Counted from the first letter of the stretch, positions 874 to 49,600 are shown. The stretch is 64,000 nt of DNA from an uncultured Rickettsiales bacterium (GCA_964539135.1 CAZIFG010000005.1:2335-66334), one strand, 5' to 3'. Notes: generated by a model not told the origin, from the letters alone. Translations and numbers: made by a program.

Positions 874-2264
874 AAACAAAAGAATTAAAAAAAGGGTTTT
901 CTAAGACATTAAAACTCCCCCCTGCATTAGGGGATTGGACAAAGTTGAATTGGACACAGGACAATGAAGATATTCTCTATGTATCAAAAATAGATTCCGC
1001 CAGTTTTGATAGTTTAAGTAAAGCGGAATTGGAAAAGCTTCATACCCTTCACTATCTTTTAGCCGAAAAAATAATCGCAGATCTTTCAGCCTGCATGGAT
1101 ATGAAGATAGAATTATATTCCGTGTCCGCAGAGCAATTAAGTTATGAACAATTTTGCCAAAATCAAAGAGGGAAACGGGTTCAGGTTGACTATTTCATCA
1201 AAAATAAAGGGCATATTGACTTAACTTTAGATTGGAAATTGGCGGCCCAAATGGTAAATCGTTTAACTGGCGGAAAGGGCCTAGAGGAGGACAAAGGGGC
1301 TTTTTCAGAGCTGGAGTGCACCATCTTAGAAACCCAACTCGAATCCTTGATGGGACTTTTACAAGAGAGCTGGAAAACCGTGTTTTCAATGGAAGAAATT
1401 TCATTGGCTTTTAATTGCGGCGAATTTAGGCCCAATAAAAAAATAGCCAGTAGAGATGGGCATTTAAGTTTTGAATTTGTACTGAGTTTTGGGAATAGAG
1501 ATATCAAAAGCATTCGATTGGGATATCCCAATAGCTTAGTCCGGAATTTCTTAAAAGAAATCAATAAGATGCCCAAATCCAGTGAACAAACAGTGAGTTT
1601 GAAAAAGAATACACTCAAAAAGTCCTTTGTAGAAGTATCCGCAAGCCTTGGAAGTGCGCAGTTAACCATGTCCGAACTCCGAAATCTTCAACAGGGGGAT
1701 GTAATTCCTTTAGAAGCAGAATTAAATAGCCCTTTGGAGTTAAAAATAAGCAATGATATTGTTTTTCTAGCGCAGCCTGGGATTAACAATGATCGCCTAT
1801 CACTTCAAATTTTAAAGCAGAATTCCAAAGAAGTGACAGCACCTTCTCTTGTAAAAATTCCTGAGCCCTTACCAGCTTCAGAAGATCATCAACTCTCAAC
1901 GCAACTGGTAGAGGACTATGGATTTGAGGAAGAGGATACCAATGTAAAAGACGACCCCTTTCAGCCGCTGAGTGAAACCTCTAAATTTGAGGAAGAAGAT
2001 CACGAAGATGCTGAAAATGAATTAGAATTAGATGCAAGCGAAGCAGAAACGCATGCAGAACATACAGAGGACATAGAAGAGGATGATGAGAGTAGTGAGT
2101 GGGACGATGAAGAACTAGAATTTGGAGAGTCTGAATCTGAAAGATTATCTCAACCTACCCCTGTAGCCAACACAGGCTCTGCTGATTCAGCAGATGAAGA
2201 CGATATCGAGTTTAATGAAGATGAGTTTGATTGGGACGAGATAGATGAGAAGCTAGATTCCTAG
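870..2264 (+). CDS. fliM: flagellar motor switch protein FliM with a long acidic C-terminal extension
   Basis: The middle-domain motif NRLTGGKG...FSELECTILE is present. A SpoA-type C-terminal domain is present (VEVSASLGSAQLTMSELRNLQQGDVIPLE...). About 135 extra D/E-rich residues follow it. Confidence 0.8.
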   Translation: MKTKELKKGFSKTLKLPPALGDWTKLNWTQDNEDILYVSKIDSASFDSLSKAELEKLHTLHYLLAEKIIADLSACMDMKIELYSVSAEQLSYEQFCQNQRGKRVQVDYFIKNKGHIDLTLDWKLAAQMVNRLTGGKGLEEDKGAFSELECTILETQLESLMGLLQESWKTVFSMEEISLAFNCGEFRPNKKIASRDGHLSFEFVLSFGNRDIKSIRLGYPNSLVRNFLKEINKMPKSSEQTVSLKKNTLKKSFVEVSASLGSAQLTMSELRNLQQGDVIPLEAELNSPLELKISNDIVFLAQPGINNDRLSLQILKQNSKEVTAPSLVKIPEPLPASEDHQLSTQLVEDYGFEEEDTNVKDDPFQPLSETSKFEEEDHEDAENELELDASEAETHAEHTEDIEEDDESSEWDDEELEFGESESERLSQPTPVANTGSADSADEDDIEFNEDEFDWDEIDEKLDS

Positions 2265-2274
2265 TCCCAGAGAT

Positions 2275-3015
2275 ATGAGAAAAATAAGCATTATCAATTA
2301 CAAAGGGGGAACCGGAAAGACATGTACAGTGGTTAACATTGCGCATGGCTTGACCTTAAGGGGCAAAAAGGTATTGCTGATTGATACAGATCCTCAAGGC
2401 TCCGTAGCCTATCATTTAGGCTTAAAACCCAAATACACGCTTTATGATATTTTAGTAAATAAGGAAAGTGTAGAAAATTGCATCATAAGAGCGAGACCCA
2501 ATTTAGATGTTATTTGTTCCAATGAACATCTTTATGTGGCTGAAATGAGTTTAGCAAAGTATCAAGGTCGAGAAACAATTTTAAGCGAAAAATTAGCAAA
2601 TATTCAGAACTACGACTTTATTCTTTTAGACTGTGCCCCCTCGATGAATTTATTGAATCAAAATGCCTTATTATACACAACGGAGATATTTTTACCGGTA
2701 TCTATGGAGTACTTATCCCTCATAGGGGTAAAACAGCTATTGAAGAATATTAAAATCATTAATAAACTATTTAACAGGAGAATCAGAATTACAAAAGTCA
2801 TTCCAACTTTCTACGATTCGAGGTACCATAAGTCAAAAGACATTTTAAACAGTCTAAATCGGGTGTTCCCCAATTTAGTATCGTCGCCCATTAGAGTGAG
2901 CGTTGCTTTATCAGAGGCACCAGGAAACAAGAAAAGCGTATTCGAATATGATGCAAGTTCAATGGGTGCAGAAGATTATTACAGGTTAATAGAGGAGGTC
3001 CTAGCGTATGAATAA
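2275..3015 (+). CDS. ParA/Soj-family P-loop ATPase embedded between fliM and fliN
   Basis: Deviant Walker A KGGTGKT and the LLIDTDPQGS motif are present. LLDCAPSMNLL and a C-terminal EAPGNKKSVFEYD segment are typical of ParA/Soj rather than MinD/FlhG. The gene overlaps the fliN start by 8 nt. Confidence 0.85.
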   Translation: MRKISIINYKGGTGKTCTVVNIAHGLTLRGKKVLLIDTDPQGSVAYHLGLKPKYTLYDILVNKESVENCIIRARPNLDVICSNEHLYVAEMSLAKYQGRETILSEKLANIQNYDFILLDCAPSMNLLNQNALLYTTEIFLPVSMEYLSLIGVKQLLKNIKIINKLFNRRIRITKVIPTFYDSRYHKSKDILNSLNRVFPNLVSSPIRVSVALSEAPGNKKSVFEYDASSMGAEDYYRLIEEVLAYE

Positions 3016-3511
3016 ACAAAATGATTTTAATGACCCATTAGAAGATATCGATCCCATTATGGAACAAGCCTTTTCTGTATCCAACGCAGAGGATGATTTC
3101 AATCTTTCAGGGAACTCCAGAAGAAATGCGCCAAGACAGTCCGAATATGAAGGGGGATTTCAACCCGCGAGAAAAGAACATCAGAGATCTAGAATTGCAC
3201 GTTCAGAGGCGGCGCCTGTATCAGAAATTGCGTTCCCCAGACTCAGAAGTAGCGTAGGAACTCCTATTGCCTCAAATATGTTCAATAATATTCCCATTAA
3301 TGTTTCTGTAGAATTAGGCCGTGCTAAAATTTCATTAAAAGAAGTCTTTGAATTAACAGAAGGGGCTATTGTAGAACTGGAAAGATTTGTAGGCGAACCT
3401 TTGGATTTAGTGGTAAATGGACAAACCATTGCCCATGGCGAGGTAGTTGCTGTAGATAATCATTATGGTTTTAGAGTAACAAGCATCATTGCATCTGTAT
3501 CTGAACGCTAA
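3008..3511 (+). CDS. fliN: flagellar motor switch protein FliN
   Basis: Canonical SpoA/FliN C-terminus: IPINVSVELGRAKISLKEVFELTEGAIVELERFVGEPLDLVVNGQTIAHGEVV. Confidence 0.85.
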   Translation: MNKQNDFNDPLEDIDPIMEQAFSVSNAEDDFNLSGNSRRNAPRQSEYEGGFQPARKEHQRSRIARSEAAPVSEIAFPRLRSSVGTPIASNMFNNIPINVSVELGRAKISLKEVFELTEGAIVELERFVGEPLDLVVNGQTIAHGEVVAVDNHYGFRVTSIIASVSER

Positions 3512-3780: not shown

Positions 3781-4525
3781 AAAAACGCTAACCATTTTGG
3801 TATTGACAGTGGTGATATGGGCAGGGCCATCTGCTCTTTTTGCCCAAGTGCCAGATAATTTTATGATTGATGCAGGGTCTTTTGTGAGTAAAGAGGGATT
3901 TAGTTCCTCAATTAATTTGCTTTTAGCCATGGCTACAATCAGTTTAATCCCCTTTATTTTGATTTCAACAACGGCATTTTTAAGAATTATTATTGTACTG
4001 AGTATGTTAAGACAAGCCTTGGCGACACAGCAATCGCCTCCCAATATGGTGCTTATTTCTTTGGCAACCTTTCTGACTATTTTTGTCATGACTCCAACGT
4101 TTCAGGCAGTAAATGAAAATGCCATACAACCGTATAAACAGGGCAAAATAACACAAATGGAAGCCTTTGATTTAGGCGTAAAACCGTTTAAGGTGTTTAT
4201 GGTAAAATTCATTCGCGAGAAAGATTTAGCGTTATTTTTAGAGTTTTCAAAAGTACCCTTTTCAACCAATCTAGAAGAGATTCCCATTTATGTTTTAATT
4301 CCGTCTTATATTTTATCGGAGTTAAGAGCGGCCTTTCAAATTGGATTTTTATTATTTATTCCCTTTTTGGTGATCGATTTGATTATTTCCAATATTTTAT
4401 TGTCTTTAGGGATGTTCATGTTATCGCCGGCGATCATTTCCTTGCCCTTTAAAATTTTACTATTTGTATTAACAGACGGGTGGAATCTCATTGTGAGAGG
4501 GCTTTTAATTAGCATACAAAAATGA
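3764..4525 (+). CDS. fliP: flagellar export gate protein FliP
   Basis: Contains TAFLRIIIVLSMLRQALATQQSPPNMVLISLATFLTIFVMTP, the hallmark FliP/SctR motif. Confidence 0.9.
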   Translation: MFQTLKKTLTILVLTVVIWAGPSALFAQVPDNFMIDAGSFVSKEGFSSSINLLLAMATISLIPFILISTTAFLRIIIVLSMLRQALATQQSPPNMVLISLATFLTIFVMTPTFQAVNENAIQPYKQGKITQMEAFDLGVKPFKVFMVKFIREKDLALFLEFSKVPFSTNLEEIPIYVLIPSYILSELRAAFQIGFLLFIPFLVIDLIISNILLSLGMFMLSPAIISLPFKILLFVLTDGWNLIVRGLLISIQK

Positions 4526-4791
4526 ACCTAGACTCAGTTACAGAAATTTTAAATAATGCCATTCAAGTCACGATTTTAACGTCGCTACCCACGGTAGGGG
4601 TAGGGCTTTTAGTGGGGCTTGTCATTGCGGTGATTCAAGCTGTGACCCAAATTCAAGAGCAAACCCTTACATTTGTACCTAAAATGGTCATAGTATTGTG
4701 GGTTTTAGCGGCAACATTTCCCTGGATGTTTCGAGTGCTCATGGAATTAACGGTCAATTTATGGGCTAATATTCCGCTCTATTCTCAGTAA
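4522..4791 (+). CDS. fliQ: flagellar export gate protein FliQ
   Basis: 89 aa with two TM helices and the QIQEQTLTFVPK motif. ATGA overlap with fliP. Confidence 0.85.
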   Translation: MNLDSVTEILNNAIQVTILTSLPTVGVGLLVGLVIAVIQAVTQIQEQTLTFVPKMVIVLWVLAATFPWMFRVLMELTVNLWANIPLYSQ

Positions 4792-15208: not shown

Positions 15209-15223
15209 AGGATAAGACAGCAG

Positions 15224-16144
15224 ATGGCCAAAATAAGGATGTCCCAGAGTATAAAAAAGGGACTTGTGCTTTTAGGGTTTCTAGGATGGAGTGCAACGCT
15301 TCAGGCTAAAGCCTTAAAGGTAGACATGCAGGTATCCACGAGCTCCATTCAGATGGGCGATTATATCGCGTTGGAAGTGCGTACAAACACAGAGATGATT
15401 TCGGGTAACATGAAATTTGCCAATAGAGTGTTTAGATGGTATTTAGAGCCAAAATCTAAAAAAAACGATTACACCTATTTGGCGTATATTGCAGCCCCGA
15501 TAAACACTCCCAAAGGGGTGTCTTTAAATATTCTGGTAGCGATGACCTTTCCAAAAGGGAGGCGCTTTGAAAAAAGCGTAGAGATAAAATATGGGGAGGG
15601 GCAAGAGGCAGGCAAAGTGCTGGCGCCGAAAAGAGTGCCAAAGATTCAGTTAAAAGGAGAAGCAGCACGTGTAAATAAAAATACAGCTCTTTTAGCAGAG
15701 GAATCCGCAGGGATTAGAGAGCTTTTTAAAACAGAAACACGCGCGCCTCGATTGGCGCTACCCTTTAAGCAGCCAGTACAAGGGAAGATTTCATCGGGGT
15801 TTGGGATAGTACGAAACTATCAAGATACAGAAAATAGGGTGCATAAAGGGGTAGATATTGCGGCCAAGGAAGGGGATTGGATTGTAGCGCCAGAAAAAGG
15901 GACGGTGATTATGAGTCAATTTTTGGAATGTCATGGAGAGTCGATCATGATTGACCATGGCTATGGAATCATTACCATTTATAATCATTTATCCGAGCGG
16001 CGAAAAGCAGTTGGCGATAGTGTCAAAAAGGGCGAGCTTATTGGAAAAGTGGGGCAAACAGGGGTATCAACAGGAGCTCACTTGCATTGGGGATTGAGTG
16101 TTCAAAATATACGCGTTAACCCCTTGAAGTGGGTAGGGATTTAG
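15224..16144 (+). CDS. M23 family metallopeptidase with signal peptide
   Basis: HKGVDIAA...DHGYGIITIYNHL...GQTGVSTGAHLHWGL (HxxxD and HxH motifs). Confidence 0.8.
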   Translation: MAKIRMSQSIKKGLVLLGFLGWSATLQAKALKVDMQVSTSSIQMGDYIALEVRTNTEMISGNMKFANRVFRWYLEPKSKKNDYTYLAYIAAPINTPKGVSLNILVAMTFPKGRRFEKSVEIKYGEGQEAGKVLAPKRVPKIQLKGEAARVNKNTALLAEESAGIRELFKTETRAPRLALPFKQPVQGKISSGFGIVRNYQDTENRVHKGVDIAAKEGDWIVAPEKGTVIMSQFLECHGESIMIDHGYGIITIYNHLSERRKAVGDSVKKGELIGKVGQTGVSTGAHLHWGLSVQNIRVNPLKWVGI

Positions 16145-19948: not shown

Positions 19949-20905
19949 ATGAAAATTCAGGTTCAAAAATACAATGGAATAGGGAATGACTTTTTAATCG
20001 TAATGGATGAGCCTCATGGAACTGTTGCGGAACACCTATTTGGGCCATCTGCTGTGTTATCCTCGTCCTCAAGTCCTCACTTATACCGTATAAACTCCGG
20101 GCTTTCGGACTCGGAATGCCTTGCAGCTGATCCAAACGTAGGCGTTTCGCAACAGTCCCCTCATCCCTGGGAAAAGTGGGCTGTATTGTGGTGTGATAGG
20201 AAGTTAGGATTAACGAAAAAAGGTGAAAAAATCGGCGCGGATGGACTGATTGTGGTTCAAAAGAAAGAATCCGGAAATTTTTATATGCGCATTATTAACG
20301 GCGATGGATCAGAGCCGGAAATGTGTGGCAATGGCATTCGATGTATGGCTGCATTTTTAGTGGAAAATCAGCATCTAAAGGATACGGCGTTTACAATTGA
20401 AACCCCTGCAGGACCCATTGGCGTCGTGTGTGATCGCGATCAAAATGGAACGGTGAAATCTGTCCGAGTGGATATGGGACCCCCTCGAATCAATGAGCCT
20501 AAAACCATAGATGTAGGAGGAACACGGCAATCGGGTAGATTTGTATCGATGGGGAATCCTCATTTTGTCATGGAATCTAAAAATCTGCCAGAACTGGATT
20601 TATCCAAAATAGGCCCTGTGTATGAACACAACAAAGCCTTTCCAGAGGGGGCCAATATTGAATTTATAGAAGTGAATGGGCCCAAAGAAATTACAATGAG
20701 AGTTTGGGAGCGGGGCGCTGGAGAAACACAGGCGTGTGGAACAGGGGCCTGTGCCGTTGTTGTGGCAATGGTCAGTGAAAATAAAGCGGAGAGATGTTGT
20801 ACGGTTCACTTACCCGGCGGTGATTTGGAGATTGAGTGGACAGAAACAACGATAATCATGACAGGTCCAGTTGAAAAGGAATACGACATGGAGTGTGTAG
20901 TGTGA
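19949..20905 (+). CDS. dapF: diaminopimelate epimerase carrying a 45-codon in-frame repeat-element insertion
   Basis: NGIGNDFLIV N-terminus and catalytic CGNGIRC and ACGTGACA motifs. Residues 25-69 are encoded by the 135-nt palindromic element. Confidence 0.85.
   Translation: MKIQVQKYNGIGNDFLIVMDEPHGTVAEHLFGPSAVLSSSSSPHLYRINSGLSDSECLAADPNVGVSQQSPHPWEKWAVLWCDRKLGLTKKGEKIGADGLIVVQKKESGNFYMRIINGDGSEPEMCGNGIRCMAAFLVENQHLKDTAFTIETPAGPIGVVCDRDQNGTVKSVRVDMGPPRINEPKTIDVGGTRQSGRFVSMGNPHFVMESKNLPELDLSKIGPVYEHNKAFPEGANIEFIEVNGPKEITMRVWERGAGETQACGTGACAVVVAMVSENKAERCCTVHLPGGDLEIEWTETTIIMTGPVEKEYDMECVV
20021..20155 (-). mobile_element. 135-nt palindromic (RPE/MITE-like) element, in-frame copy inside dapF
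   Basis: Its reverse complement aligns ungapped with 59361-59494, about 115 of 134 positions identical by hand alignment. The terminal inverted repeats are CTGTTGCGGAACACCTA ... TAGGCGTTTCGCAACAG. Confidence 0.85.
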
Positions 20906-33842: not shown

Positions 33843-34676
33843 CTATAAGTAATCCAGTACGCGACCATTATAATCAGGGTTCGCGGACACATAATGATCG
33901 ATATCCTGTAACAGTTTACAATAAAACAGGCGCTTCTCAAATGAGCGAATTGTATCATAGGCATAGAGGGCATCAAAAAGCATCTCTAAGAAGTAGTCAG
34001 GCAGTTGATCCATGACTTTTAAGACCCATTCTGTAGAGGGGAATGTTTTAAACGAAAGAATCAAGCGAGAAATAGGCTGTTGAAGGGCCGGTTGTAAATC
34101 GGGAAAAAGCGCCATATAGGGTTGAAGGGCATAATAACATTTAAGCGTAATGCCAAATTGCTCAGGGCCAGACAGTTCTGGAAGTTCCGGAATCACCGTA
34201 TCCAGAATATCTTCGGCAAGGCTTAAAAGAGAATCCAAGGGCAAGGTGGGGGCATTGGGGTAGCGCTTTAAAAAACTCGAAAGAGAGAGGTCTGGGGCTA
34301 AAATATCCTGAGCTAAGGCATTAAAATAAGGCAGGTAATCGGTGTCAGTGTCGCCATCTGAAGCGGCGGTAGGGGCAGCAGGTGTTGCGGTAAGGTTTGT
34401 AAATAAATAGGTGTCTGTAGGCAGTCGTTTTTTAACTTGAGAAAGAATACGGGGATCCATTAAGGAAAAAACAGCCGATCTATCGGTAGAATCTAGGGCC
34501 TTTAAAAAATCAAATAAAAAATCGGCGTTTAGGTCCGGTGTAATGATTTGAGAGAGGGCATAATGCTCATCGGGTTTCATGGGCGTGGGCAGTGCTTTTC
34601 GATCGATAAGAACCGTTTTAAGGGCATCACCTGTAAAGGCAATTTGGGTAGGGGAAAGGTTAAGCGTAGGCATCAT
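33843..34676 (-). CDS. acidic hypothetical protein translationally coupled to the giant ORF
   Basis: 277 aa. Its start overlaps the giant ORF stop (ATGA at 34673-34676). No motif recognised. Confidence 0.55.
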   Translation of the reverse strand: MMPTLNLSPTQIAFTGDALKTVLIDRKALPTPMKPDEHYALSQIITPDLNADFLFDFLKALDSTDRSAVFSLMDPRILSQVKKRLPTDTYLFTNLTATPAAPTAASDGDTDTDYLPYFNALAQDILAPDLSLSSFLKRYPNAPTLPLDSLLSLAEDILDTVIPELPELSGPEQFGITLKCYYALQPYMALFPDLQPALQQPISRLILSFKTFPSTEWVLKVMDQLPDYFLEMLFDALYAYDTIRSFEKRLFYCKLLQDIDHYVSANPDYNGRVLDYL

Positions 34677-37600
34677 TCATACCCTCCTTCATAGTCAAAT
34701 TCAGAACCTCGAGGAGCGTCCCTATCATCAAATGTAAAATCAGGATCATCCCAATTATCAAGGGCATCATTTCCATCTACAGTGCTCGCATCATCAGCCC
34801 CTAGATCCGCGAAAAGAGGCACGCCACCTACAGTACTACCATCACCGCTACCTACAGTACTCGTATCATCCCCATCTACAGTGCTCGCATCATCAGTCCC
34901 ACCTACAGGACTCGTATCACCCCCAGTGGGGGCTTTCAGAGCAAACAAAATTTGAGGCAAGGTAGCTTTTTGGTCAGCCACAGAGCTTGAGGAGAAGCCT
35001 TTTAAAAGCGTATGTGCAGGTGCATCTTCTGCGAGGCGGTAACGAGGTCTATCAAAGGTGTCAATGAAGGCACCAGAATCACCTTTAATGCCACCCGCAC
35101 GAGCAGGGGCTTGACCAGAAACGGTATAACGGTAGAGACCTTGCTCCTCTTGAAGAGGATTATAACCCAAGCTTTTTAAGGTAGCAGCATCAACGGATTC
35201 CGTGAGCAAACGCACCGCAGTGGGTAAAAAATGAGCTTCCTGATCTGAGCCTGTTAAGCCTTGAAGCAGCGTCGTTAAGGTTACACCTTGAGACCGAGCA
35301 TGCTGAAGTAAAGTGACCCCCAGTTTTTTAAGCGCGTCTTTAGGCACAGCCGACTGGCTAGACATCTCCTTTAAGCTGATGAGTACAGTCATCAAGCTCG
35401 AGGGGCTGGAATTAACGAGTGGCGGCTTGGTGGCTATAGAAGAAACATCAGAGATGCTCGATGAATCGGAATACACAGAAGACGCATCATCATCAGAAAC
35501 AGGGGCAGCAGAACCTCCCAAACAAATGGCTTTCAACGCATCATAACTTGCCTGTGGCGTAGTAGCGGGTAAAAGGCTATCAAATAGAATCTTAGCTGAA
35601 GAGTCCGACACTTTAGCGCTAAGGTGTAACTGATCAAACAAGGCCTGTGCAGAAGATTTATGAGCAGATCCCCACTCGACAGGGTAAGTAGGCCTAGTCG
35701 TATCCACAGCCGCCGCATGGAACTGTCTGAATTCATGAGGAAATTTAAGGGCAATATCAGCAAGAAGTTGAGCCTGTGTTCGAGTTTCAGAATGATGAAC
35801 AGGATTTGTAAGGCCCACCAACAAGCGCTGAACATTCGTGCGAAGGGTGGTAAAGGGGCGAATAGAAGGATCTGTAGAGGGCGTATTAAAAACAGCACCC
35901 GAGCCTACAAAATTCAGGATGTCACGACGGGCATCGGCAGATAGTTGAGGGTGCAGAAGCATGGAAAGCAAAAGAGGTCGACCGTCGGCCCCTATGGTTT
36001 CTTTAGCCGACAGCAGAAAACGTTCAAATCCCTCTCTTTTGAATTTTTGTTTTTCAGGTTTCAGCGAAGGATCGTTAAAATTGGCATATCGGTTTAAGAC
36101 ATGAACCTGATCATCAACATGGAGGCGTGTGCTTAAATAAGAATCAGCATATTGAGAACCGCTCCATTTTTTACTACCCCGTATATCTGCGTGGGTATGT
36201 ACAGAACGGGTGACATCTACTGTACGTTCATTGGGCAAAAATAAAAGATCTTCACCATACCCCGACGAAAAGGCACTTAAAACCATTTCGCGAGGGCTTT
36301 GAACAGCACAAATAGTGTCGTGAATAGTACGTAAAGCATCTTCTTTTAAATTTAAATGAGGAAAATCACTTAAATCTACCATGCGATCTCGAGGCATAGA
36401 AATAACGCCGCCTGTTGCAAAACCCTGTTCTTTAAGCCGCGCAAGGAGCGTACCAGCAGGAAGCTCATAATTGGTTTCAAGTTGAGAAAGAGTCCGATAT
36501 CCCTCTTGTTCTTTGTTAAAGGCAGCATTTAAGGTATCGACAGCGGTTTTAAGTTCAGGAGATAAGGACGGAGAGCTTCCGGCGCTAATAGCGGGATTGG
36601 GGGAAAGACTCCCTTGAATGGTTTGTAAGTCTTGGAAATCTTGCCACGCATGTTTTAAAATCAGGGCGGATAATCGAGCTTGAATGGCATTTGCCCGTTC
36701 AGCCCGTTCACCAGCACCTGTAAGTTCATCATGATCCGCACGCAGCTCTTTAATAACGTCGAGGCTATCTAATTTAGCAAAAGACATAATCGCACGGGCA
36801 TCGAAACCGGATTCAAAAAGTTGAGGGTTAAACGATCTCGAGGTCGCAGCGGGATCAGAACCATCTAAAATAGCAGTGCCATCAGCAGCACTGCTTAATT
36901 GAACAAAAAGCTGATCAACAGTAGCCTGTTTGTCTGCAGAGGTCGGAAAGTCAATATCATCTAATGCTGCGGCAAGGCTTTGTTTAGACAGCCCTTGATT
37001 AATGGGCCGCATGACAAATCCTCGGTCATCTAAAATGGGTTTGGCACCCAAAATTTGGCGGTCAGGAGAAATCACTTTAAGGGCACGTAAGTTGGCTGTA
37101 CCGATGGCTGGATCTAAATTATCAACAGAACCATATCGAGACACCTGTCCGGTGACTTTAGATAAATCCTGTTCAGAACTCCCAACGGCACCTGCTTGAG
37201 TAGCATCATGACTGCTTGCACTTACATTGGCATGGCTGGTCATCAATTTCAACAGAAAATCAGGGTTAAGGCGAGGACCTGAAATGGGTTGATATTTAGA
37301 CATGGCCGCTGCAAATTGACCCAAAAGTTGGAGCGTCTCTTGATTTTCAGGAGTAGTAGGATCCTGCATGGCAAATTTAGCCAGATTTTCAAGGTGAATG
37401 CGTAGATTTTGGTAGCGGTCTTTCCAGGGGGCGCCAGGGGCAAGTTCTAAGGCACGGATATTAACAGGACCATCTTTAGACTGAGTATTACCTTCCAAAA
37501 TTAAGGATTTAAGCAGAGATTCTGTCTCAGTAGGCGACAAAGGATCCGATTTAGATAGCAAGTCTTTAGCTGCATCCCTACTTTCTGTAACGCGGTCCGC

Positions 37601-40600
37601 ATCGATACGATGTTGAACGGGGGATAAATAGGAATAAAAGAGGCCCCTTGTATCTGTAAATTTATCGAGCATAGCCTGACGAAGGGGAGAATCTTTAGGG
37701 AGACTCATGATAAACTTGTAATCTTTTTCAATAGAGGTCGCAATAGATTTACCAGAGGAAATAGCCTCGTGAGACACTAGGGTTTTAAATAAAAGGTTGG
37801 TCACAAATTTAATCTGCTTTTTGTCGCTTCCAGCTGTTTTACCCATAGTTTTTAAAATCTCTCGAGATTCTATGGGGTGCGACGCCAAAAACTGTTCCAT
37901 TTGTCGGGTAATACCAGCGAGTTGCTCCTTTCCAATCGTAGGGTTAAGAGGGCCTTGAAGGGCCTGTAAAAAGGGAATCGTATTTTGAATATCTGCTTTT
38001 AATGTGGTGTGAGGGAAATTAGGATGCTCAGGACGCATAACAGAACGCGTAAGCGACGCCATTAGACGAGAAAATTGGTGCAGTTTGGACGGATGAGAGA
38101 GTTTTAGCGTTTCATACAGCGTCGTTAAAAATGTGGCATCCTTTGAAAATAACAGTTTCGCAAGCGGTTCTGGCAATTTAGATCCAAATTCATGCCGAGT
38201 AGTAACAGCAAGAAGCTGATCAAAGACAGCGTCAGATGATCCTGGAGACCGAGACAGGATGTCCATGAGGCTAGAAGGATTAGAAGCAATAGCCGTTTGA
38301 ATCTCCTGCTTTGAAACAGTTGGCGTGCTCGTAGTATCAACCAAGGGGACAGTCGCTTTGAGTATAGACGGTAGCGTAGCGGCGTCTGGACTGCTTCTCA
38401 TCCATCCGGCAAGGCTAAGGCCAGCAGGAGAAGACAGAGCCTCTGTAAGTGCTTTAGACTGAGGACCAGAGGCAAAGGCCCCAAGAGCAGAAAAGCGTGC
38501 CGCGTCTGATCCAAAAGAAGTGTCAGTTTTTAAGGCAGTAACAGCTGTAAGAATAGCTGAGGTATCCCCACTTGTTAGGGCTTTATGAAGGTTAACCAGT
38601 GTTCCCGTTGGTTCAGGGGTGTCTTTAGATAGTGGCGGATAAGTAGTAGGATTAAGGGTAAGGGTGGACGGTAAGAGAGCTCTAAACAGCGCTCGATCTG
38701 CAAGGGAAAGACTATTAATAGAAACTGAAAGATCTGAAAGATGATCATCTTTCAGAAGCCCCTTCTGGGACATCTCAGAAAGTGTGGAGGCAAGTTTAAC
38801 AACCCCAATAGAGGGATTTGAAAAGGACGTTAACTCACGAACCAGCTGACCTGCAGTCATGCCACTTAAATCTCTAACTGCAGAATGCGCTTGAAGTTTC
38901 GCATCAGGCAGAACCGCAGAAAGACGCCCAAGATGTGTATTCGTAATGCCTGGAACGCCATCTAAAACACCAGGAAGTGCCGTATTGATAATCCCTGTAA
39001 GAGCAGGATCTGCCAGATCTGGCAAGCCCCCAGTTGCTAGGGCAGGAAAGGAAGCAACCGCCCGAAGGGTGGCTTTAGCCAATTCCTGAGTAATATCACT
39101 GAATAAGGCTCTAAGTTGAGGTGTAGGCGCTGTAACCGTCGCCATCAACTTCAGAAGAGCCCCCAGAGATTCAGGGGAGCAGGTAGGCTGTAATTTAAGA
39201 AAATTATCCACAGTAGGAGGCGTTTGAGTTTTTAAGGCTTCTTTATGAGCGGCAACTTCAGCGCGAATACCGGCATAAGCAGCCGCATTAAATTGAAGAG
39301 TGTAGTCAGCCCCAGGCTGAATACTAGCTGTTAATCGTTTGGTCTGATCTAACATGCGTCTAAATCCAGGCATTAGAGTATCGGCTTCAGCGTCTTTAAG
39401 CGGCGCTAAAAGTCGATTAAGGGTACCTTTATCATGGGTAAGGTTGGCAGGATTAATCTCCGTGAGGATTCGTGTTCTATCAGCAGGAGAAACAGTTAAA
39501 AGAGCTTTGGCCGCAGAAGGATTCACTTGAGCCATCAATACAAGCGATCTTTCGGGATGGGGCGTACCAAGAAGGGCATTCAAATCACCAAAAGTACCAT
39601 CTGGTTTAAAGAAAGCATCATTGTCCTTAACCAATTGAAGATCGGCAGGAACAGCATCGCCATAAGGTGAATCATCTAAGGACTGCAAAAGCTTTAGATA
39701 AGCTTGAGGGAAGTTATCTTTAATAGCCGTCAAGCCAGCTTGAGACGGTGGCGTACCCAGCGCTGTTCCAAGTGTACTAATATCCCCAGATTGAAGGGCA
39801 GTGTGCTGGGCGGCATTAAGCTCGCTTAAAGCAGCAGGAAGAGGTGCGGGGCCTGCAGGCACAGGCACAGCGCCCGGTGCCGAAAGCGTAACAGTTAAGT
39901 GCGTATCCGCCTCTAAGAAAAGCTGACAGAGGGTAGAAACACCTTGAAGTTGAGCATAATATTCTGGATTGGGAACTTCACTAGAAAGAAGGTCTCCAGA
40001 GCGATCTTGAAAGTCCATTAATTTTTGAGTTTGTTTCTGAATTGTCTCAATTTGAGCTTTTGAAAGTGAAGCGGGTACCGCACGCATTCCCAATGCAACG
40101 GAAATAGTAGCGTCGCTATCAGATAAAACGCGTTGGGAGATAAGGGCATTAAGGTGGGTTTGCAGTGTAGTTTGTAAGCGGGTCACCTGAGTTTGTGCTG
40201 CAGCAAGAGCGGTAGCATTAGATTTATCAATACCAGCCATCACCGCCATAACTGCTTTTTCCATATTTTTAATAACATTGATGGTAGATTGGGGCTCTGC
40301 ACCCGTTCCAACATGAGTAACAACTTCTTGAGACAGTGAAGTCAGCAAATCCACCGCTTTAGCAGGGTTAGTTCTGGCAATAGCCACAAGAGCATCTGTA
40401 AATCCAGCAACTTTATGATTAGAGGCAAAAGAACCCCAAATTCTATCCACAGGGCGTATGCCCAGAGGACCCATTAAGGCAGCGCCTGCAGCAGCCCCCT
40501 GAACCCCATTCACAAGCTCTGTTTTAAAGAAGGTTGCCAATTCTTGATGAGACTGGAGGTTTGTTCCCAGAGTAGTAAGGAAGGTTTCCAGTTTATCCTG

Positions 40601-43600
40601 ATCCAGAAGAAGCACTTTATTCGCAATCTCCAGAGCGAATTTACGAACAACATCCCGATTGATAGGCCCATCTAGCTTTTTGAGGAACTCTGCAAGTTCT
40701 TGAGCCGCTGCAGCAGGATCTGTAGAAAGCTTGTCTTTAATCGCATCTAAAAATTGATCTCTAACAGCCTTTAAATCGGTAAGATTGGGATCTTCAGGGG
40801 CGGCCGTTTCTGGATCTATAAGCACCCGGAGCGCAGGCTCTGTTAATTTAGCAGCTTTAGAGAGAATATCGGTCTTGTCCTTAAGTTCTTTAACCGCTAA
40901 AACAGCGGTGGCGCGAGACGCTTCCTGACCTTTAAGGTGAGCTTTAAAGTCAACAAGATGGGCTAAAAGCTTGGCATTGGCACCTGGTTTAGATAAGTCT
41001 GCAATAAGTGCATCTAAAAGCCCATTACCACTATCCGCCAATTTTTTAACAAGGGCTTGAGGCTTTGTAGAATCATTAAAGTTAGCAATAAGATTAGCCC
41101 CATCGGAATCAGCTTCAAGGAAGGATTGCACGAAGGTTTTATCACTAAAAATATCAGATTGGTGGATACGATCGGAAAAATTTTGTCTGGCAATCAAAGC
41201 GTCATTTGCATTATGATCAGCCTCTCGTATGACAGAGCCCTTGGCACCTTTATTAAGCCCAAACAAAGAAAAGGAAAATTTAGAGGAGCCAGCAAAGGTT
41301 CTTTTCAGCATGGTCCATCCTGCTGTACCTGCAGCGCCAAGCCAAGATTTACCTCTTAGATCCACAGATTTCGACGTGGGCGAAATAAAGCTTTGAGTGC
41401 CATTTTCAGCGGTAGACTCTTCAAGAGCTTTAAGGACAAAATTACGAGTTTCAGAGTCGTCTTTACCACTATCAATTTTCCCAATAGCCTTAGTCAGCAT
41501 AGAAAGCAAGTGTTTATTACGATCACGGCTGAGTTCATAAAACAAATGACGGAGCACACGCGCTTGGACCTGATTTTGTGGATCCGCAAAAGCCTGTAAA
41601 TAAGCCGCTGTTTTTTGAATAGCAGCGGTTTGTTCGGGCGAACCATCTTCTGCCAAGTAAGCCTGTGTCAAAAGAGAGTTAAGTTGAACCCCAGCGCCAG
41701 ACTCTGCATGTTGAAGAAGGGCGTAGCCAGAGTCGAATTGACTAAGAGTAGTCAAGTTTTGAGAAGTAAGCTTACCCTGAGCAGCTGCAACGCCCTCGGG
41801 GCTACCATCTAATAAACGAGTGCCAGAAAGCCCTTGAACCAAGTCTCTATTGGCCGCAGCTTCTCGCATTTGGAGCATTTCTGTTTTTTTGGAATTGAAC
41901 ATAGCATCTTCTGGGAAAAGGAGTTTCAATTGAGCCTCTTCGTCTGCACTTAATGTTTTAGAGGCATAAAGCTTAGTTGTAAGACTAGTAGAGGCATCTG
42001 TAGGATTAGAAGCAGATTTTTGAATCAATGTAGCTCTATCTAAACTGGATGTTAAAATAGCCCGCGCTTTAAGGGCAGAAGACTCAAACAGAATGTCTCG
42101 AATTTTATCAAGATGCGCTTTTTGTGTGGGATCAGGGTTAGCTTCGTAAGCCTTCTTGAGTGCATCTAAAATGGCGACATGCCGTGCTTCAGAGGTCGCG
42201 CTATCGTTAAAGGTGGTTTCTCCGGCATCTGCAGATTCTTGAAGCATGGTCTGCATCTTCTGAAGAGTGTCATCATCTGCAAGTTTAGGAGAGCGAGGAC
42301 CAAGGGATTCCGGCCCACGCATTGCCTTAATGGCATTCAGTGCTTTGATATGATTCCGTTGCATAACCCCAAGGGCGACCTGTTGACGGCGTGTCAGACG
42401 AACCCCATCCAAGTCTGTTGCTTTGTCTAAAGCCAAAATGGCTTTATCCTGCTGCTCCAAGCGTGTGGAATCCCTATCCGCAACAACATCTAAATCAGGG
42501 TTTAGCGCCTGTTCCAGGCTGGCTTCAGTCAATTTACGAGATTTATCGGCTTCTAAACGGTGTTCCGCGCGGATCTCTTCAAATGTCGTGGCTTTTTTCT
42601 TGGAAAGTTTAGGATCTTTGGCATCGCCCAAAGTATCCAAAGCTTCGCCCAAGGAATAGCCGCGTAATTTTCGAATCTTACCGTGGTCTCGAATGTCTCT
42701 ATTTAAAAAGGACAGGGAATCTGAAACATCATTTCGAAACCCAATCATATGAAAAAACTGGAAGATTTTAATTAAAAGCAGCGCAAGAAGCTCAATGGCA
42801 ATAATACCCGCCGTTAAGGCCCCATCTCCAATCGCAAGCCCAAAAGTTTTAAGCTTACTTTTAGCAACCTCAGCTTCTTTGGGTAAGGCATCTCGTTTGG
42901 CTTGAATCACTTTATCAAATTCAGCACGTGCTTCTGCGACTGTAGTGGGTTTTGCATCAGAGCCTAAGCTTTCAAGTGTGCCCTTGAATTTTTCTAATTT
43001 CTCGTCCTCACTAAGCTTAGAAAGCGCCTTCTCAGAATGGTTGGCAACAACAGTATCCAAGGTATCCTTTTTTTCAGTGATCTCAGCACGGTTCAGTTTT
43101 TCATTGCGTTTGCCTTCTTGTTTAAGCTGCTTAAAGGTAGAACGAAGAGAATCGGTATCCAAAAGCAACTTTTCTTTAGAATAGGCACGCGAAAGTGCTT
43201 TTTGGATCACCTTGCGATCCGCATTTGTAAGGGGGGTGGTATTGCCTTGCAAAAACTTATCAATATCCGAAACCGAAAGCGGGAATTTTGTATTTGCGAA
43301 CTGAGACTTGGCAGATCGAGAAAACATACTAAGAAATCTGGAAATGAAGTTTGGAAAGATTTTGTTTTTAACACTATCTCTAGCGGCCTTAAGTATTTTT
43401 AATTCAGCAGTAGAGTCCTCTTTAGCTTTTTCTAGGGCTGTTGACGCATCCTGGAAACTAACCTCAGAGGCCTTTTCTAGGGCCTTAGCAGCGGCAGCAC
43501 TCTTTGCTTGCAGTGCAGTATTGGAGGGGTCAGATGCAGCTGCTTCAGCAGCTTTTGTATAGGCTTCAGTCGCAGCTGAAACACGTTTTTTAAAATCGGC

Positions 43601-46600
43601 ATGATCTTTAGCTAGCGCTTCTAAGCGAGCACTTGCATAACGCGTGGGGGCATCGGGTTCAGACGCAAAATCAACACCTACAAAGCCAAATGCGCGTTGA
43701 ATCCGTGCCTGTGCAGAAGTGGGAAGTACATTAAGAACGGCGGCAGTAGGCCGTTTGCTAAAGAAGCGTTTCTCGTCTCCAATGAGATAGGCTTCTTTAA
43801 GTTTAGGGTCTTTTTCAAGCTTTTTAAGAAAGGCATTTGCGGTATCGGTGCTTTCCATCGCCAATGGCTCAATAGTCTTATAATGGCCTTGCCAAGGAGT
43901 ATTGACGGAGATGGAATCTCGTAGATGCATATTAAAGAGACGATTGATGAGACCCGTTGGAAGATGAAGTGTAAAAAGATGCCCTTCCATAAGGGACTTT
44001 TTCATCTTCGCATAGAAAGCGGCTTTAAGAGATCTTAACCCATCGGCAACAGCGGCAATATCTTCTTTATCTTCCTGAAGATACAGGTTCAAAACTTGTA
44101 AGTTTCCTTTTGTAATACCCGCTGAAAGAATGGCATTTTCAAGGCCTGAAATACCCGCAAAGTCAATGCCATTCGTAAAATCAGAGCTTGGGAAGACAGA
44201 GTCTTCAGCAGCGCCAGCATAAGGGTCCAGAGTGTCCGTTTCTCCCATTCGTTCTAAGTCTGTACTATTAATATCAAAATTGTCCGACAAACCAGTAAGT
44301 TGGGCAAGGTGGGCAATACCTTGTGCCGCAGCATCAAAAAGCCTCAGGGCAATATAAGGGCTGGCATGACCCAACATTTTAAGAAATCCTCGCGCCAGTT
44401 GAGTCCTAGCGGAGTTATTAGAGCCAACAGTACGTTTAAGATCACGGTGCTGAGTGGAATCATAAGTGGCGCCCAAACCTGTAGCTGCAGACCCTCGCTC
44501 ATTGATTGCAATGGCCGACTCTAGGGCTTTTTTTTGAGCGCCTAGAGCTTTTTTATCCTTTAGACCTTGAATTTTTTTATCTTGTTTTGCAAGGGCATCA
44601 GCGTGGTTTTGTCTTTTTTTTGTAAGAGCCTTTTCTTTGCTATCTATTTTCTTTTGAATTTCCGTCTGTTTTGCAGTATCGGTCTCTTTAGCTTTCTTTT
44701 CTTTTAATTCTTTTATCTTTTTTTCATCGCTCTGGGTGGATTCTTTTTGCTTAAGTACGGTCTTGGCTCTGTCTTTTTCAAGTGCTTCAATTCGCCCACC
44801 CTTAAAACGCTTTAGTAATGTTTCAGTCGCCTGTTTAAGAAGTGCCGTCGTGGCGGTAACAGCTCCTTTTTTAACACGGTCTAGTGCTTCATTTCGGGCA
44901 TCCACTGTATTTTGAAGTTTACGAAAAATTAAATCCAAAACGCGGGCATCATTTTGTTCATACGCGCCAACAATACTGCTTAATCGACCTGTAGAGCCTG
45001 CAGACCGACCCGAAAGATCGGCAATGGCATTTAACTCGGCAGATTGAAGGGCTAAAAACACCTTAGTAAGGACTTTCATTTGTCTGAATTGACGCTTCAG
45101 TTTCATGTTGGCCTTGGCTTTAAGCGCAGGGTTTAAAATGAAACGACCCCGACCTGAAAAGCGAATGGCTTTTTTCTCATTAAGGCCATAGAATTGATTT
45201 TGGGTTCCAGTATTTTGGCTATTCTGATTAATTTGAGTACGAAGTTTACCGCTAGTAACTTGAGAAGCGGTGCTAGATCCAAACGCAGCTAAAGAAAAAT
45301 TAATGCTGTTAAGGCGTTCCTTTTCGCTTTGTGTGAGGCCCCCTGCATTAGCCTTATTTTCTAAATCTCTTTTTTCAGCTCTTAAGGCCTCCGCTTCTTG
45401 TGCTTTTTCATCTGAATTGCCAATGGTGGCATTTGTAATCGCCTTTAAGGAATCCTCATTAAGTGGCGGTTTTGTATTAATGGAACTAATTTGAATGATC
45501 CCGATTAAAAATTCAGAAATAGCGCGTGTTGTCGCCATAACACTGGGGATTTTGACGAGTTTTCGGAGTGCTGCACGGGTCATAGAAGGTTTCGCAACAC
45601 GATCTAAGAGCTTAGCGGCCCCTAAAAGAATGCTGGCAACCATAAAGCCAACACCCGTAACCCAGGCATCGAGCACATATTTTTCATAAGCATTTTTAGA
45701 GGCAACGCGATTGTTTAACTCTTCAACCAGAGAATCCATAATCGCGGTTTGTTTGCTATTATAAATATCAGCCATAGACGCAGCGGTATTAATAGCCCCA
45801 ATAGAACTTTGCATGCCAGAAAAACGAGCTACTTCTTGGTTTAGGGCATCCCAATAACTTTGAAGCACCATCAAATAAATACTGCGATTAGCAGACACAG
45901 TGGTCAGTTTTTGTTGAACCTCTGTTACGGTATTAAAATCAACCTGTTGAAATTTCATAGTGGTGAATCGTTTTTCAAGCGGCACATCACCTTTTTTAAT
46001 GAGCGTTAGCAAGGCATCTTTTTCAAGCTCTGTTTGATGAAAGAAGGGGGCTAAAAGACGATTTTTATGCGTCGTTTCAGACAATATATGAGCATTTTTT
46101 TCATCTGAGGTACGTGATGTTCGAAGAATACGGGTATCTTTTGAGGGATCATCTAAATCAGCACGATTGGGAAGAAATTGACGAAGATCCGCAGTGTAAG
46201 CCCCACCTTCTGCAATTTTAGTATTTAAGGCCGATCCTGCAGGTTTATTAAAGAGGTCTGTTTGTCCATCTCGAATAGGTTGATCAGTATAGCCAGCCCC
46301 CCCTACAAGAGAGTCCCCTCTGTTCGCGACAGTGTTAATATTAGCTTCTCTATCCCCCACATTGCCATCTCGATGATACGATGCCAAATACCCTAAATAA
46401 GGGCCCCTTGCTAATTTTCGGTAGTAATCCGCCATTTCAATCGCAAGATCAAAGGCGTCAAATGCCTCTAGGCCGGGGTCTTTACCCAATTCTTTTTCAG
46501 GGTAGATGGCAGCTTCTGGGCCTGTATTTTTGACAAGTAGACGAGGTCTGTAGCGAATAAGAGACCCTGAGGCCTTGGCATTTGCTTTTTCTGCCTCAAA

Positions 46601-49600
46601 ATCCAGTTCAAAAATAGTGCGGTCTTTTTCTAGGTTTTGGTTCCAAGAGGAAAAAAGGGCCCCTTGAATTTCACGGGATAAATCATTTCCTAAATCATTT
46701 TCAAGGCCAACAACAACGCCAATGGCATCAAAAGATCCCGCTTGTTGATAGCCGGCGTAGCCACGCTTGGATCTTTCCGCAAAAAGAGCAATAGCCGAAT
46801 CTAAAGCATCTAAAATAGCGCGAAGGATAAGCAATCTAAATTCAATGGCCAATTGAAGTGTAACGGTGTTTTGGTGCTTAACAGCAGCAAGAAGACCATT
46901 GTACGTGAGAAGGCCATCTCCACGTTCTTCAATAAAGCTAAGTCCATATCCAGAAGGGGCATTAGGGTTAGAGCTATTAGGCTCGCCAGGTACCCCTTTA
47001 ACTTGATAAGAGGCATATCCATTATGAAAGGTTTGGGTTTTATCGCCTGAAAATTCTTTTCGTTGCTTCAATCGAAGCAGCATTAAGTCATTAGAAAGGG
47101 CGTCGACAAAGCCAATCGCTGTGGAAGAAGCGGTAGGGGCGGGGCTATCATCCCTGGGGAGAAGCGTATCCGAAAAGCCGCGTGGTATGTCAAGAGAAAA
47201 TGAGCCATACAGATGATTTGGGTCCGTTACAGGTTGTTGTGAACTAAGAAAATCTTCATATTTCTCAATATTTGAATAGCTATATCGAGAGCCATGGCCA
47301 GGTTCAAAGGTAAATCCATCTTCACGGTAGGCAGAGCGTGCCGCGGCGCCATAAGGATCTTTAGACTGTTGCAAAATGCCAGGGTTTCGATATTCAATGA
47401 TTCCTTTTTCAAGGTGATACTCTAATTTTTTTTGGATAGCGGTAATATAATGTCCAGGGGTGAAGGTCAAAAGATCCATCATAAAATTAAAGTTAGAAAG
47501 TGGTACGTTGAAAATGCCAGCCGGTGGACGATCTGGGTCATAAAACCATACTTTCCCGGCATCTAATTGGGCATTGAATCCCAAAACATTGGCAAGATGA
47601 AGACCTGTATCGGTTGCAAGCTTAGCTTCAGCAGCGGCCTTAGAGGTGGCATCTGGGGCAGTAGCTGCCGCTACCCGATCCGCGGGTAATGTAATGTCCT
47701 GATCAATATGCCACTTTTTAAGGGCAGCATAGAGGGGAGCCCCTAAATAATTTGTTGTAACAGCCGTAGCTGTAATTTTAAGCGCAGATTGAATCGCCAA
47801 TCCTGTACTTCGAATCAGTTGAGTCCAATAGGCCTTATAATAACTGGCGCGTGAGGTAATCAGGGCATTGACCGAATCGGTAAGCATATTAATAGAATGA
47901 TGGGTTTCTTCAAAGGCTTGTTTTTGAGCTTGAAGCTCATTACCCATAAAGGCTTTGGTTCGATTTAAAAGCTGCGTAACGTAGTTATTAGGTTGAGACG
48001 CATTAAACTCTGCTGTAGCCTGTAAAATGGCTTCTAATTGGGCAACCAGGACGAGCTGTGTTGTATGGGCAAACAGTTGAAAACTCACCAAGTTTTGGCG
48101 GAATTCCACTTCTCTTTCCATATTTAAATCCACAAAAACAGGAGCGTGTGTGCTATCTAAAGTCCCGTAACGTTCTATTTGAGAATAAATTTCAAACCCT
48201 GTTTTAACGGTAGTAATAGCCCCTGCAACACCCAAAAGCGTTGTGGAGGCAAAAGAAGACCCTACCTGAATCGCAGTTCTCGCAGCGGCTAATCCCAGAG
48301 CCGCGGTGAGAGCTTCTTTAATATTAACGTCTGGGGGACGAGAAAAAGTAGCTGTTTGACTGGCATCTGCCCCATGAAATAAAGGCGATGTTTCGGTATT
48401 TTCCAAATGGTTAAGATCAATAGAAAAACGGCCTAAACTCTGACCAATTTTGTAGACACTTCCTCTGGAGCTAGGATCAAAGGATTCATTGGCTTTAGTC
48501 ATAAGGCTATTGATAGCAGTTTTGGTAGAGGCCATATATTCTTCAATATGGTCTTTAGAAAAATGAATGCCTTGGGCGGCATTGATTTCTTTGGTGCTAT
48601 AAAAAATGTCATACATAGTGCGACTTGTAGAACTCGAAGAAGAGGGGGGAGAGGTATCATCGGAGGAGCCCCCAATAGTACTAGTACGGGGGCCTTGAAT
48701 GCGAGATAAAAGGCCGGTATTAACAAATTCGGTGGTGGGATCTTTTCTTAAAAGTGAAATACCCCCAACGCGATAAGGTTCGCCTGTAGAAGGGTCAGGA
48801 AACAGTCTACCTGTTGTAATTCGTTTAAAATATTCATTTCGGGCAAGGGTATTTTCTGCAGTGACTTGAAGTTGAAGCTGATTGATATAGTGTTTGGCCT
48901 GCGCTCGAATATAAGAAATAGAGCCTGTAAGTTCATCAAATATAGAGGGGGCAGCACCGCGAAGGGTGGATAAAATATAGGTTGTAACAGCACTGGCATT
49001 GGAGTCCGCATTGCCCGCTTCCGCAGCATTGCTCATATCAAATTCTTGAAGCCATTGATCGATATTAAAGAGTTTAGTTTGAAAGGTGACATCGTTGGTT
49101 TCTGAAATATAGGTAAACATTTGATCGGAGAGTTCGTTGAGTCCTTGAGCAATAGAGTCCACAATGCCCTGCAAGGCATCCATCCCTATTTTAAGAGTCG
49201 ATTTATCTCCACTCTCTTTAAGCGCGCGTTTTTCAGCATCAGATACAGATTCCAGTTTAAACGCTTCGCTGGCCTTACCCACTTCGTCATAAACGGCTAA
49301 AATAGCAGTAGCAAAGACAGTTAAATCCTGAGTTTGGAGACGAAGTTTAGCAATAAAATCATAAAATCCTTCTGGGTTAATAGAAACGGAATGGATGTCA
49401 GTTAATCCGGCAATAGAATCATTTGCGCTAAAACTAAGGACATTTCCAATGGCTTGGGCAGCTTCTGAGCTTTGATCTCGAAGTTCAAAACGCGGGTGAA
49501 TATTAACGTCAAAAAAAGGATAAGGCTTTGGATCTGTGGCTGAGGCAGAAGTACCTGATCCCGGACTTGGATTGGCCGTAATGACTTTGGTGCCATCCGG

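Follow-up and report, generated by a model that had tools for sequence, protein, structure and literature searches.

An RPE-like palindromic MITE lies in frame within dapF and other genes of an uncultured bacterium

Introduction

To our knowledge, the in-frame survival of selfish palindromic DNA within core enzymes has essentially one textbook example, that of Rickettsia. The Rickettsia palindromic elements (RPEs; Ogata et al. 2000 Science 290:347; Ogata et al. 2002 Genome Res 12:808) are summarised in two later articles (PMC10969869, PMC3184786) as palindromes of about 105–150 bp with an open frame that occur in frame in unrelated genes, with 44 copies in R. conorii. One of the founding papers calls the phenomenon ‘unique’ to Rickettsia, and a 2024 review treats a similar mechanism in other prokaryotes as merely conceivable (PMC10969869).

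Several other small repeats and insertion sequences bear comparison. Coxiella burnetii carries QMITE1 (300–400 bp, with 2–3-nt direct repeats) and QMITE2 (150–190 bp, with 7–11-nt repeats) (PMC5896051). Small repeats of the ERIC, YPAL, BOX and RUP type are covered by Delihas 2007, Croucher 2011 and the review PMC3184786. Members of the IS1016 subgroup of the IS1595 family, such as ISApl4, have the inverted repeat GGGGCTGTACTAGA and 8-bp direct repeats (PMC12561309).

Here we describe a palindromic element in dapF of an uncultured bacterium. The window, by which we mean the whole 64,000-nt stretch of DNA that was analysed, had been the subject of an earlier note proposing that dapF contains an in-frame insert comparable to the RPEs. 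The results support an undescribed MITE family with RPE-like behaviour in a lineage unrelated to Rickettsia.

Results

The dapF gene (diaminopimelate epimerase; 19949–20905, forward strand) is a complete 318-aa ORF with an insertion (PF01678, DAP_epimerase, E = 6e−54), and the motifs around the catalytic residues Cys126 and Cys263 as well as the GNDF motif are all retained. The earlier note had assigned codons 25–69 to a 135-nt segment without an in-frame stop; these coordinates (20021–20155) and the encoded peptide were reproduced. It had also reported an ungapped match of about 86% to an intergenic stretch at 59360–59494. The identity stands (116/135, 85.9%), whilst the coordinates were one base off: the match is to the reverse complement of 59361–59495, and the other register gives 26%. 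A repeat search within the window extended this pair to 141 nt at 85%. The element's palindromic self-matches reached 62/135 among ungapped 135-nt matches in the window, and the best unrelated ones only 54–56/135, which places the match between dapF and the intergenic stretch far above chance.

The element in dapF spans 142 nt (20018–20159, forward strand; nhmmer E = 3e−45), supported by its hairpin and by a six-copy alignment, and translates as GTVAEHLFGPSAVLSSSSSPHLYRINSGLSDSECLAADPNVGVSQQS. Its left terminal inverted repeat (20018–20033, forward strand) reads GGAACTGTTGCGGAAC, compared with a family consensus of GGGACTGTTGCGAAAC, and its right one (20144–20159, forward strand) reads GTTTCGCAACAGTCCC. 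On either side lies the target-site duplication CTCAT (20013–20017 and 20160–20164, forward strand), which accounts for a PH...PH repeat at the protein level. Element plus duplication (142 + 5 = 147 nt) therefore add exactly 49 codons to DapF (codons 24–72), replacing the 45 codons proposed earlier. In silico deletion of 20018–20164 left an open 269-aa DapF, with the predicted empty-site junction ...GAGCCTCAT|CCCTGG....

Alignment of six DNA copies (two in the window, three on contig L002 and one on contig L022) gave a unit length of 136–142 nt. All six carried terminal inverted repeats of ~16 nt (GGGACTGTTGCGAAA / TTTCGCAACAGTCCC), including the two window copies for which shared repeats had already been noted. 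Both window copies fold into a single long hairpin (minimum free energy −54 to −63 kcal/mol, z −5.6 to −7.7), compared with about −32 to −37 kcal/mol for shuffled controls; values were −56 to −59 kcal/mol (z −7.7) for the dapF copy and −70 kcal/mol for the feoB copy. The consensus hairpin keeps 52 pairs across the six copies. Compensatory changes occurred in 3/52 of these and the covariation term was not supportive, so among these copies there is no evidence of selection on the hairpin beyond common descent. The three compensatory pairs correspond to concerted changes of both inverted repeats in some copies (window 59357–59498; L022 4403–4538). In the window intergenic copy, for example, CTGTTGCG became CTGTCGCG and CGCAACAG became CGCGACAG. 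Such changes, too few to test, hint at either hairpin-templated repair or subfamily masters.

A perfect flanking 5-bp duplication was found at dapF (CTCAT), feoB (AAGAG, in gene orientation) and the L022 copy (AAATA). Flanking 5-mers of two intergenic copies matched at 4/5 positions, and no duplication was recognisable around the intergenic window copy (59357–59498). Of 28 elements with these ends, 9 had identical flanking 5-mers and 17 had 5-mers that matched at ≥4/5 positions, compared with 0/252 perfect and 8/252 at 4/5 in shifted controls. The element is a MITE, because it is small, is bounded by inverted repeats, generates a duplication of fixed length and variable sequence and is present in multiple copies. 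Its 136–142 nt hold no transposase gene, and its open frames of just 45–47 codons match no family.

The insert lies between the GNDF strand and the helix that precedes the CDR..G.GADG segment, where, as previously suggested, canonical DapF has a short linker. None of 16 aligned DapF orthologues (260–310 aa, 43–48% identity) had a segment at exactly this site, nor a homologous 45-aa segment, and the positions invariant across the 17 sequences, both catalytic cysteines included, were all kept. Alignment to DapF sequences in the PDB splits at this point, into query residues 1–21 and 78–312. An AlphaFold2 model of DapF had a mean pLDDT of 83.6, with residues 23–70 below 50 and most other 10-residue blocks at 87–98, and compared with solved DapF structures at a target-normalised TM-score of 0.79–0.85. 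The model, confident outside the insert, predicts that the DapF fold is kept and shows the insert as an additional loop of low confidence between beta2 and alpha1. The low pLDDT shows only that the insert is unmodelled and says nothing of where it is located. A second assembly record, whose contigs end elsewhere, agrees with the window at every base of the dapF region, and the neighbouring cell-wall genes, including an EPSP_synthase-family gene read as murA, are intact.

We further investigated the occurrence of the element in contigs assigned to the same organism by source tags and coverage (one ENA sample, about 6x). Eight full copies (four in frame in genes, four intergenic) and two fragments were found on at least five contigs. 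The three in-gene copies besides dapF, in UvrC, FeoB and a BamB/PQQ-like protein, were recovered by a peptide search with six frames of both window copies. This search missed DapF itself despite a 47-aa exact match, so its list of in-gene copies is probably incomplete. The 4:4 ratio of genic to intergenic copies is also biased, because three of the four in-gene copies came from protein searches that are blind to spacers.

The insert of the BamB-like protein (...GTVAKRLFCPSAVLSSSSSPHLSHINSGLSDSECLAADPNVDISQQ...) has the same orientation as that of DapF, and those of UvrC and FeoB have the opposite one (...GTVAK(R/C)LRLDQLQGPHVRKPLY.INEDL.TRITQQM.KIG.SQQ...). None of 11 UvrC orthologues, the closest 63% identical, has the 47-aa UvrC insert, which sits exactly between ...K.DG and YFGP. 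The FeoB insert (feoB contig, L002 3763–3898) sits in the G domain, between two matched blocks and between chain residues 49 and 50 of 3k53. Apart from the insert, uvrC and feoB are intact. The inserts separate conserved secondary-structure elements that are joined by a short linker in orthologues. Each host protein repeats one or two residues at the insert junctions (PH...PH, HS...HS, DD...HD, KE...QE), as a 5-bp duplication predicts; for UvrC (DD...HD) and the BamB-like protein (HS...HS) the duplication was inferred from these residues at the protein level only. The insert peptides of DapF and the BamB-like protein are 84% conserved, and those of UvrC and FeoB similarly so. These copies, several with target-site duplications of their own, argue against a local duplication or assembly artefact, which the earlier note had named as a possible source of the similarity.

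The full-length intergenic copy of the window (59357–59498, reverse strand; 142 nt, 84–86% identical to the dapF copy) begins at the hpf stop codon and lies between convergent hpf and a flgG-like gene; a terminator scan found no terminator role for it. Two further intergenic copies on L002 (1234–1370 and 1464–1600) have the same orientation and are 96 nt apart. The spacer between them (1371–1463) holds an imperfect palindrome of its own (CTGAGACTGAGTATCAGATACTGAGTCTCAG) and lies upstream of a gene that faintly matches DUF6662. The L022 copy (4403–4538) lies between a thioesterase stop codon and the lolA ribosome-binding site, and the gene caller had read through it. This LolA copy was the one new copy found by an exhaustive HMMER search of 1.84 billion cluster representatives with a reverse-orientation peptide profile; a second match, to a repeat protein, was judged spurious. 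UvrC and FeoB were unlisted in this search, probably because insert-free relatives represent their clusters.

Two fragments lie within the window. One is internal (15209–15245, reverse strand; 37 nt, model positions 10–46), at the junction of a pseudouridine synthase gene and an M23 peptidase gene. It fills the 15-nt spacer between them and supplies the first ATG of the M23 ORF (15224); a second ATG at 15239 begins a signal-peptide-like sequence, and either may be the start. The other is a solo right-end inverted repeat (51497–51520, forward strand; TAGGCGTTTTGCAACAGTCCCA), a remnant just upstream of the start of a giant ORF (34673–51364, reverse strand; 5563 aa) whose only Pfam match is a transglutaminase-like domain (residues ~205–274). 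Inside this giant gene, 28 nt at 47364–47391 resemble the element's right end at 78%, with a single mismatch to GACTGTTGCAAAA, either by chance or as a decayed in-gene copy.

All four in-gene copies entered in one phase, in which GGG-ACT-GTT-GCG-AAA reads GTVAK in either orientation; four copies would match the open phase by chance with a probability of (1/3)^4, about 0.01. In this phase (phase 0), the 142-nt and 136-nt variants are stop-free in both orientations, whereas the other phases have 1–4 stops. With the duplication, both variants add a multiple of three (142 + 5 = 147; 136 + 5 = 141), which the 137-nt variant does not. The latter occurs as two copies, intergenic only, that are frameshifted and have 1–3 stops per orientation. 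The intergenic window copy has two stops in the orientation and frame used in dapF, namely the TGA already described and a TAG. One intergenic 136-nt copy also has no stops in either orientation, so freedom from stops is a property of the family and does not prove that each in-gene copy has been under selection. The dapF copy has diverged by 11–16% from its relatives and has gained no stop. This pattern of phase and stops would be the expected trace of selection for read-through translation, and is indirect evidence that the segment is neither removed nor bypassed. From the conservation of the reading frame we infer that the insert is translated.

Since the element can be stop-free, gene callers may read through copies that lie upstream of genes. 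Read-through of this kind was seen in three gene calls (L022 4388–5176, lolA; L003 13–1938; L017 3126–3884), producing N-terminal extensions of 45–110 residues on LolA, on a seeming periplasmic solute-binding protein and on a seeming small helix-turn-helix regulator (the latter two judged by sequence). These extensions are probably annotation artefacts.

GC content of the host is 42%. The best named relatives of its DapF and UvrC belong to Candidatus Margulisbacteria / Marinamargulisbacteria (44–49% identity), with the closest UvrC overall at 63%, which suggests that the host belongs to a poorly sampled lineage near Margulisbacteria. Family-specific strings gave no matches in GTDB representative genomes (a 20-mer) or JGI metagenomes (a 26-mer), both of which lack the host species. 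BLAST against plasmids returned only chance-level matches of 26–28 nt, and in the entire window Rfam, at gathering thresholds, identified one tRNA only.

We expanded the search to the pattern of the two ends at their spacing, which occurred in 19 stretches in GTDB genomes and 13 in JGI metagenomes. The GTDB stretches came from four Omnitrophota MAGs (16), one unclassified bacterial MAG (1) and a Hyphomonadaceae MAG (2), and the metagenomes from groundwater and sediment. These elements have the same ends (GGGACTGTTGCGAAAT...), measure 129–150 nt (mostly 142) and generate a 5-bp duplication, with palindromic interiors that are unrelated; many are found at the ends of contigs, as would be usual for repeats. 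The nhmmer family profile matched their ends only, so the Omnitrophota and metagenome loci are superfamily relatives rather than copies of this family. Candidate in-gene insertions in Omnitrophota were rejected, the long ORFs of L003 and L017 looking like gene-caller extensions upstream of real starts. Shared ends with unrelated interiors would point to one transposase lineage mobilising many MITE families across phyla. By a rough grouping, length plus five was a multiple of three in about 8 of about 13 interior types, compared with one third expected; fitting lengths included 142, 139, 133, 130 and 145, and non-fitting ones 129, 134, 143 and 150. As the independence of the families is uncertain, this excess is suggestive only.

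Discussion

We place the probability at roughly 0.85 that, taken as a whole, these observations reflect a multi-copy palindromic MITE that survives in frame inside genes in the manner of the RPEs. A trans-acting transposase would recognise the terminal repeats and move the element. Selection would then filter genic insertions, sparing only those copies that are in phase, lack stops and fall in surface loops able to tolerate them. Transcription and translation of the insert would yield a loop that is disordered or loosely structured, with DapF staying active. One result that we count against this explanation is that, once the insertion is deleted, the beta2-alpha1 linker of DapF is 5–6 residues shorter than in the closest orthologues. 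A parent transposase with these repeats was found neither in about 100 kb of the organism (window, L002 and L022) nor in the 32 related loci, and the repeat end was not found among viral contigs. A weak pair of repeat-like sites in L010, in or just after an apparently TnpB-like ORF, was judged to be chance. In that locus a 465-aa ORF (1803–3200), TnpB-like by its motifs, lies 1.6 kb from one of the Hyphomonadaceae elements, and no link to the inverted-repeat elements was seen.

The segment could be present in the gene and missing from the protein, its hairpin being either cut out of the mRNA or skipped by the translating ribosome. Bypassing is known from the mobile ‘byp’ inserts of yeast mitochondrial genes and from the gap in phage T4 gene 60, and an insert hairpin as stable as that of dapF (−56 to −59 kcal/mol) or feoB (−70 kcal/mol) would suit such a mechanism. 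However, each of the four in-gene copies lengthens its gene by a multiple of three (147 or 141 nt) and is stop-free, and all share one phase, constraints that would be needless if the segment were removed or skipped, and neither take-off/landing codon pairs nor splice-like features were seen; we consider excision or bypass improbable. Similarly small weight is given to the idea that dapF is dispensable or decaying and that the insertion is a tolerated lesion in a future pseudogene. The apparently poor sampling of the host, whose closest DapF is 47–48% identical, and the giant orphan gene in the window fit such decay, whereas the complete ORF, the retention of every residue invariant across 17 sequences, the high-confidence fold modelled outside the insert and the intact neighbouring cell-wall genes do not. 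Moreover, the element copy has diverged by 11–16% and is still stop-free, and the same pattern recurs in the otherwise intact uvrC and feoB.

The conservation of the insert peptides between hosts (84% between DapF and the BamB-like protein, and similar between UvrC and FeoB) might indicate exaptation, the peptide providing its host proteins with a new property in common, for instance as a tag for interaction or localisation. This we regard as very unlikely: the conservation is not above the DNA identity of intergenic copies, the two orientations encode peptides that are unrelated except at their ends, and the peptides match no known family and are modelled as disordered. Least credible of all is a native, lineage-specific DapF loop whose similarity to 59357–59498 is secondary, a local duplication or an assembly artefact. 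The segment is indeed found in one genome only. Yet it is present in no orthologue, the same sequence recurs, with its own 5-bp duplications, both in spacers and within unrelated genes of at least four further contigs, and the dapF region is reproduced exactly in another assembly record whose contig ends differ. Misassembly is further disfavoured because in-frame junctions flanked by duplications are not expected from it.

The MITE tolerated in frame represents a clear second case of this phenomenon, in an unrelated uncultured lineage and with transposon hallmarks cleaner than those reported for RPEs. The route from a mobile element to an extra protein loop would then not be a Rickettsia oddity. 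There are also consequences for annotation, with real proteins lengthened by 47–49 residues, assemblies fragmented and ORFs over-extended by gene callers (lolA of L022 and, in Omnitrophota loci, two further ORFs).

A broader proposal, possible though doubtful on present evidence, is that the element is built to survive in genes and belongs to a cross-phylum superfamily that has ends, approximate size and a 5-bp duplication in common. Element and duplication together make exactly 49 codons (47 for the 136-nt variant), and because one phase is stop-free both ways, about one in three coding insertions would be non-disruptive in either orientation. If true, a widespread transposon lineage of gene-dense genomes would have been selected for its compatibility with genes, and would offer a general way of creating new protein loops. 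Literature searches left the forward terminal-repeat string unmatched and found its reverse complement only in an unrelated Pseudomonas enzymology paper; they returned nothing combining Omnitrophota with MITEs and no description of a cross-phylum MITE superfamily.

Comparison with known systems

The outermost 8 nt of the element, GGG(A/G)CTGT, resemble GGGGCTGT of the IS1016 subgroup. IS1595/IS1016 elements differ in their target duplication (7–9 bp vs 5 bp here) and in their repeats beyond these 8 nt, and no transposase of this type was found near any copy; the likeness of the ends may therefore serve as a lead and not as an assignment. REP/BIME sequences, which are extragenic imperfect palindromes of 20–40 nt without a duplication, were rejected, as the element measures 142 nt, has a duplication and lies inside genes.

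QMITE1 and QMITE2 are likewise MITE families with tens of copies in a host-associated bacterium, some of which overlap or extend ORFs in frame (PMC5896051). Their effects on ORFs are mostly terminal extensions, stops or changes to hypothetical proteins, whereas the insertions here are internal to conserved enzymes and have a 5-bp duplication. ERIC, YPAL, BOX and RUP repeats are also small hairpin repeats with open frames that are occasionally fused in frame to genes. Most of them lie between genes, terminal fusions being occasional, and their ends and sizes are different; they are not known to insert time and again into the interior of core enzymes in a single phase, as seen here.

The closest likeness is to the RPEs. 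In both, a palindrome of about 100–150 bp occurs in spacers and in frame inside unrelated housekeeping genes, here those for DapF, UvrC, FeoB and the BamB-like protein. The added length is also alike, about 45–50 residues, which for the RPEs are predicted to be accommodated by the host fold. NCBIfam includes RPE domain models, and at the peptide level, where this comparison was made, the insert peptides in both orientations matched 0 Pfam/NCBIfam families at E ≤ 10. The earlier note's parallel with the RPEs therefore stands for the mechanism, in-frame copies in several unrelated genes, and falls for membership of that family, on grounds of sequence and host. The host is not Rickettsia (GC 42%; named relatives in Margulisbacteria). 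Unlike the RPEs, the element has clear terminal inverted repeats and a 5-bp duplication, the signature of a classical cut-and-paste-type insertion, and whichever way round it lies, it is read in one and the same phase.
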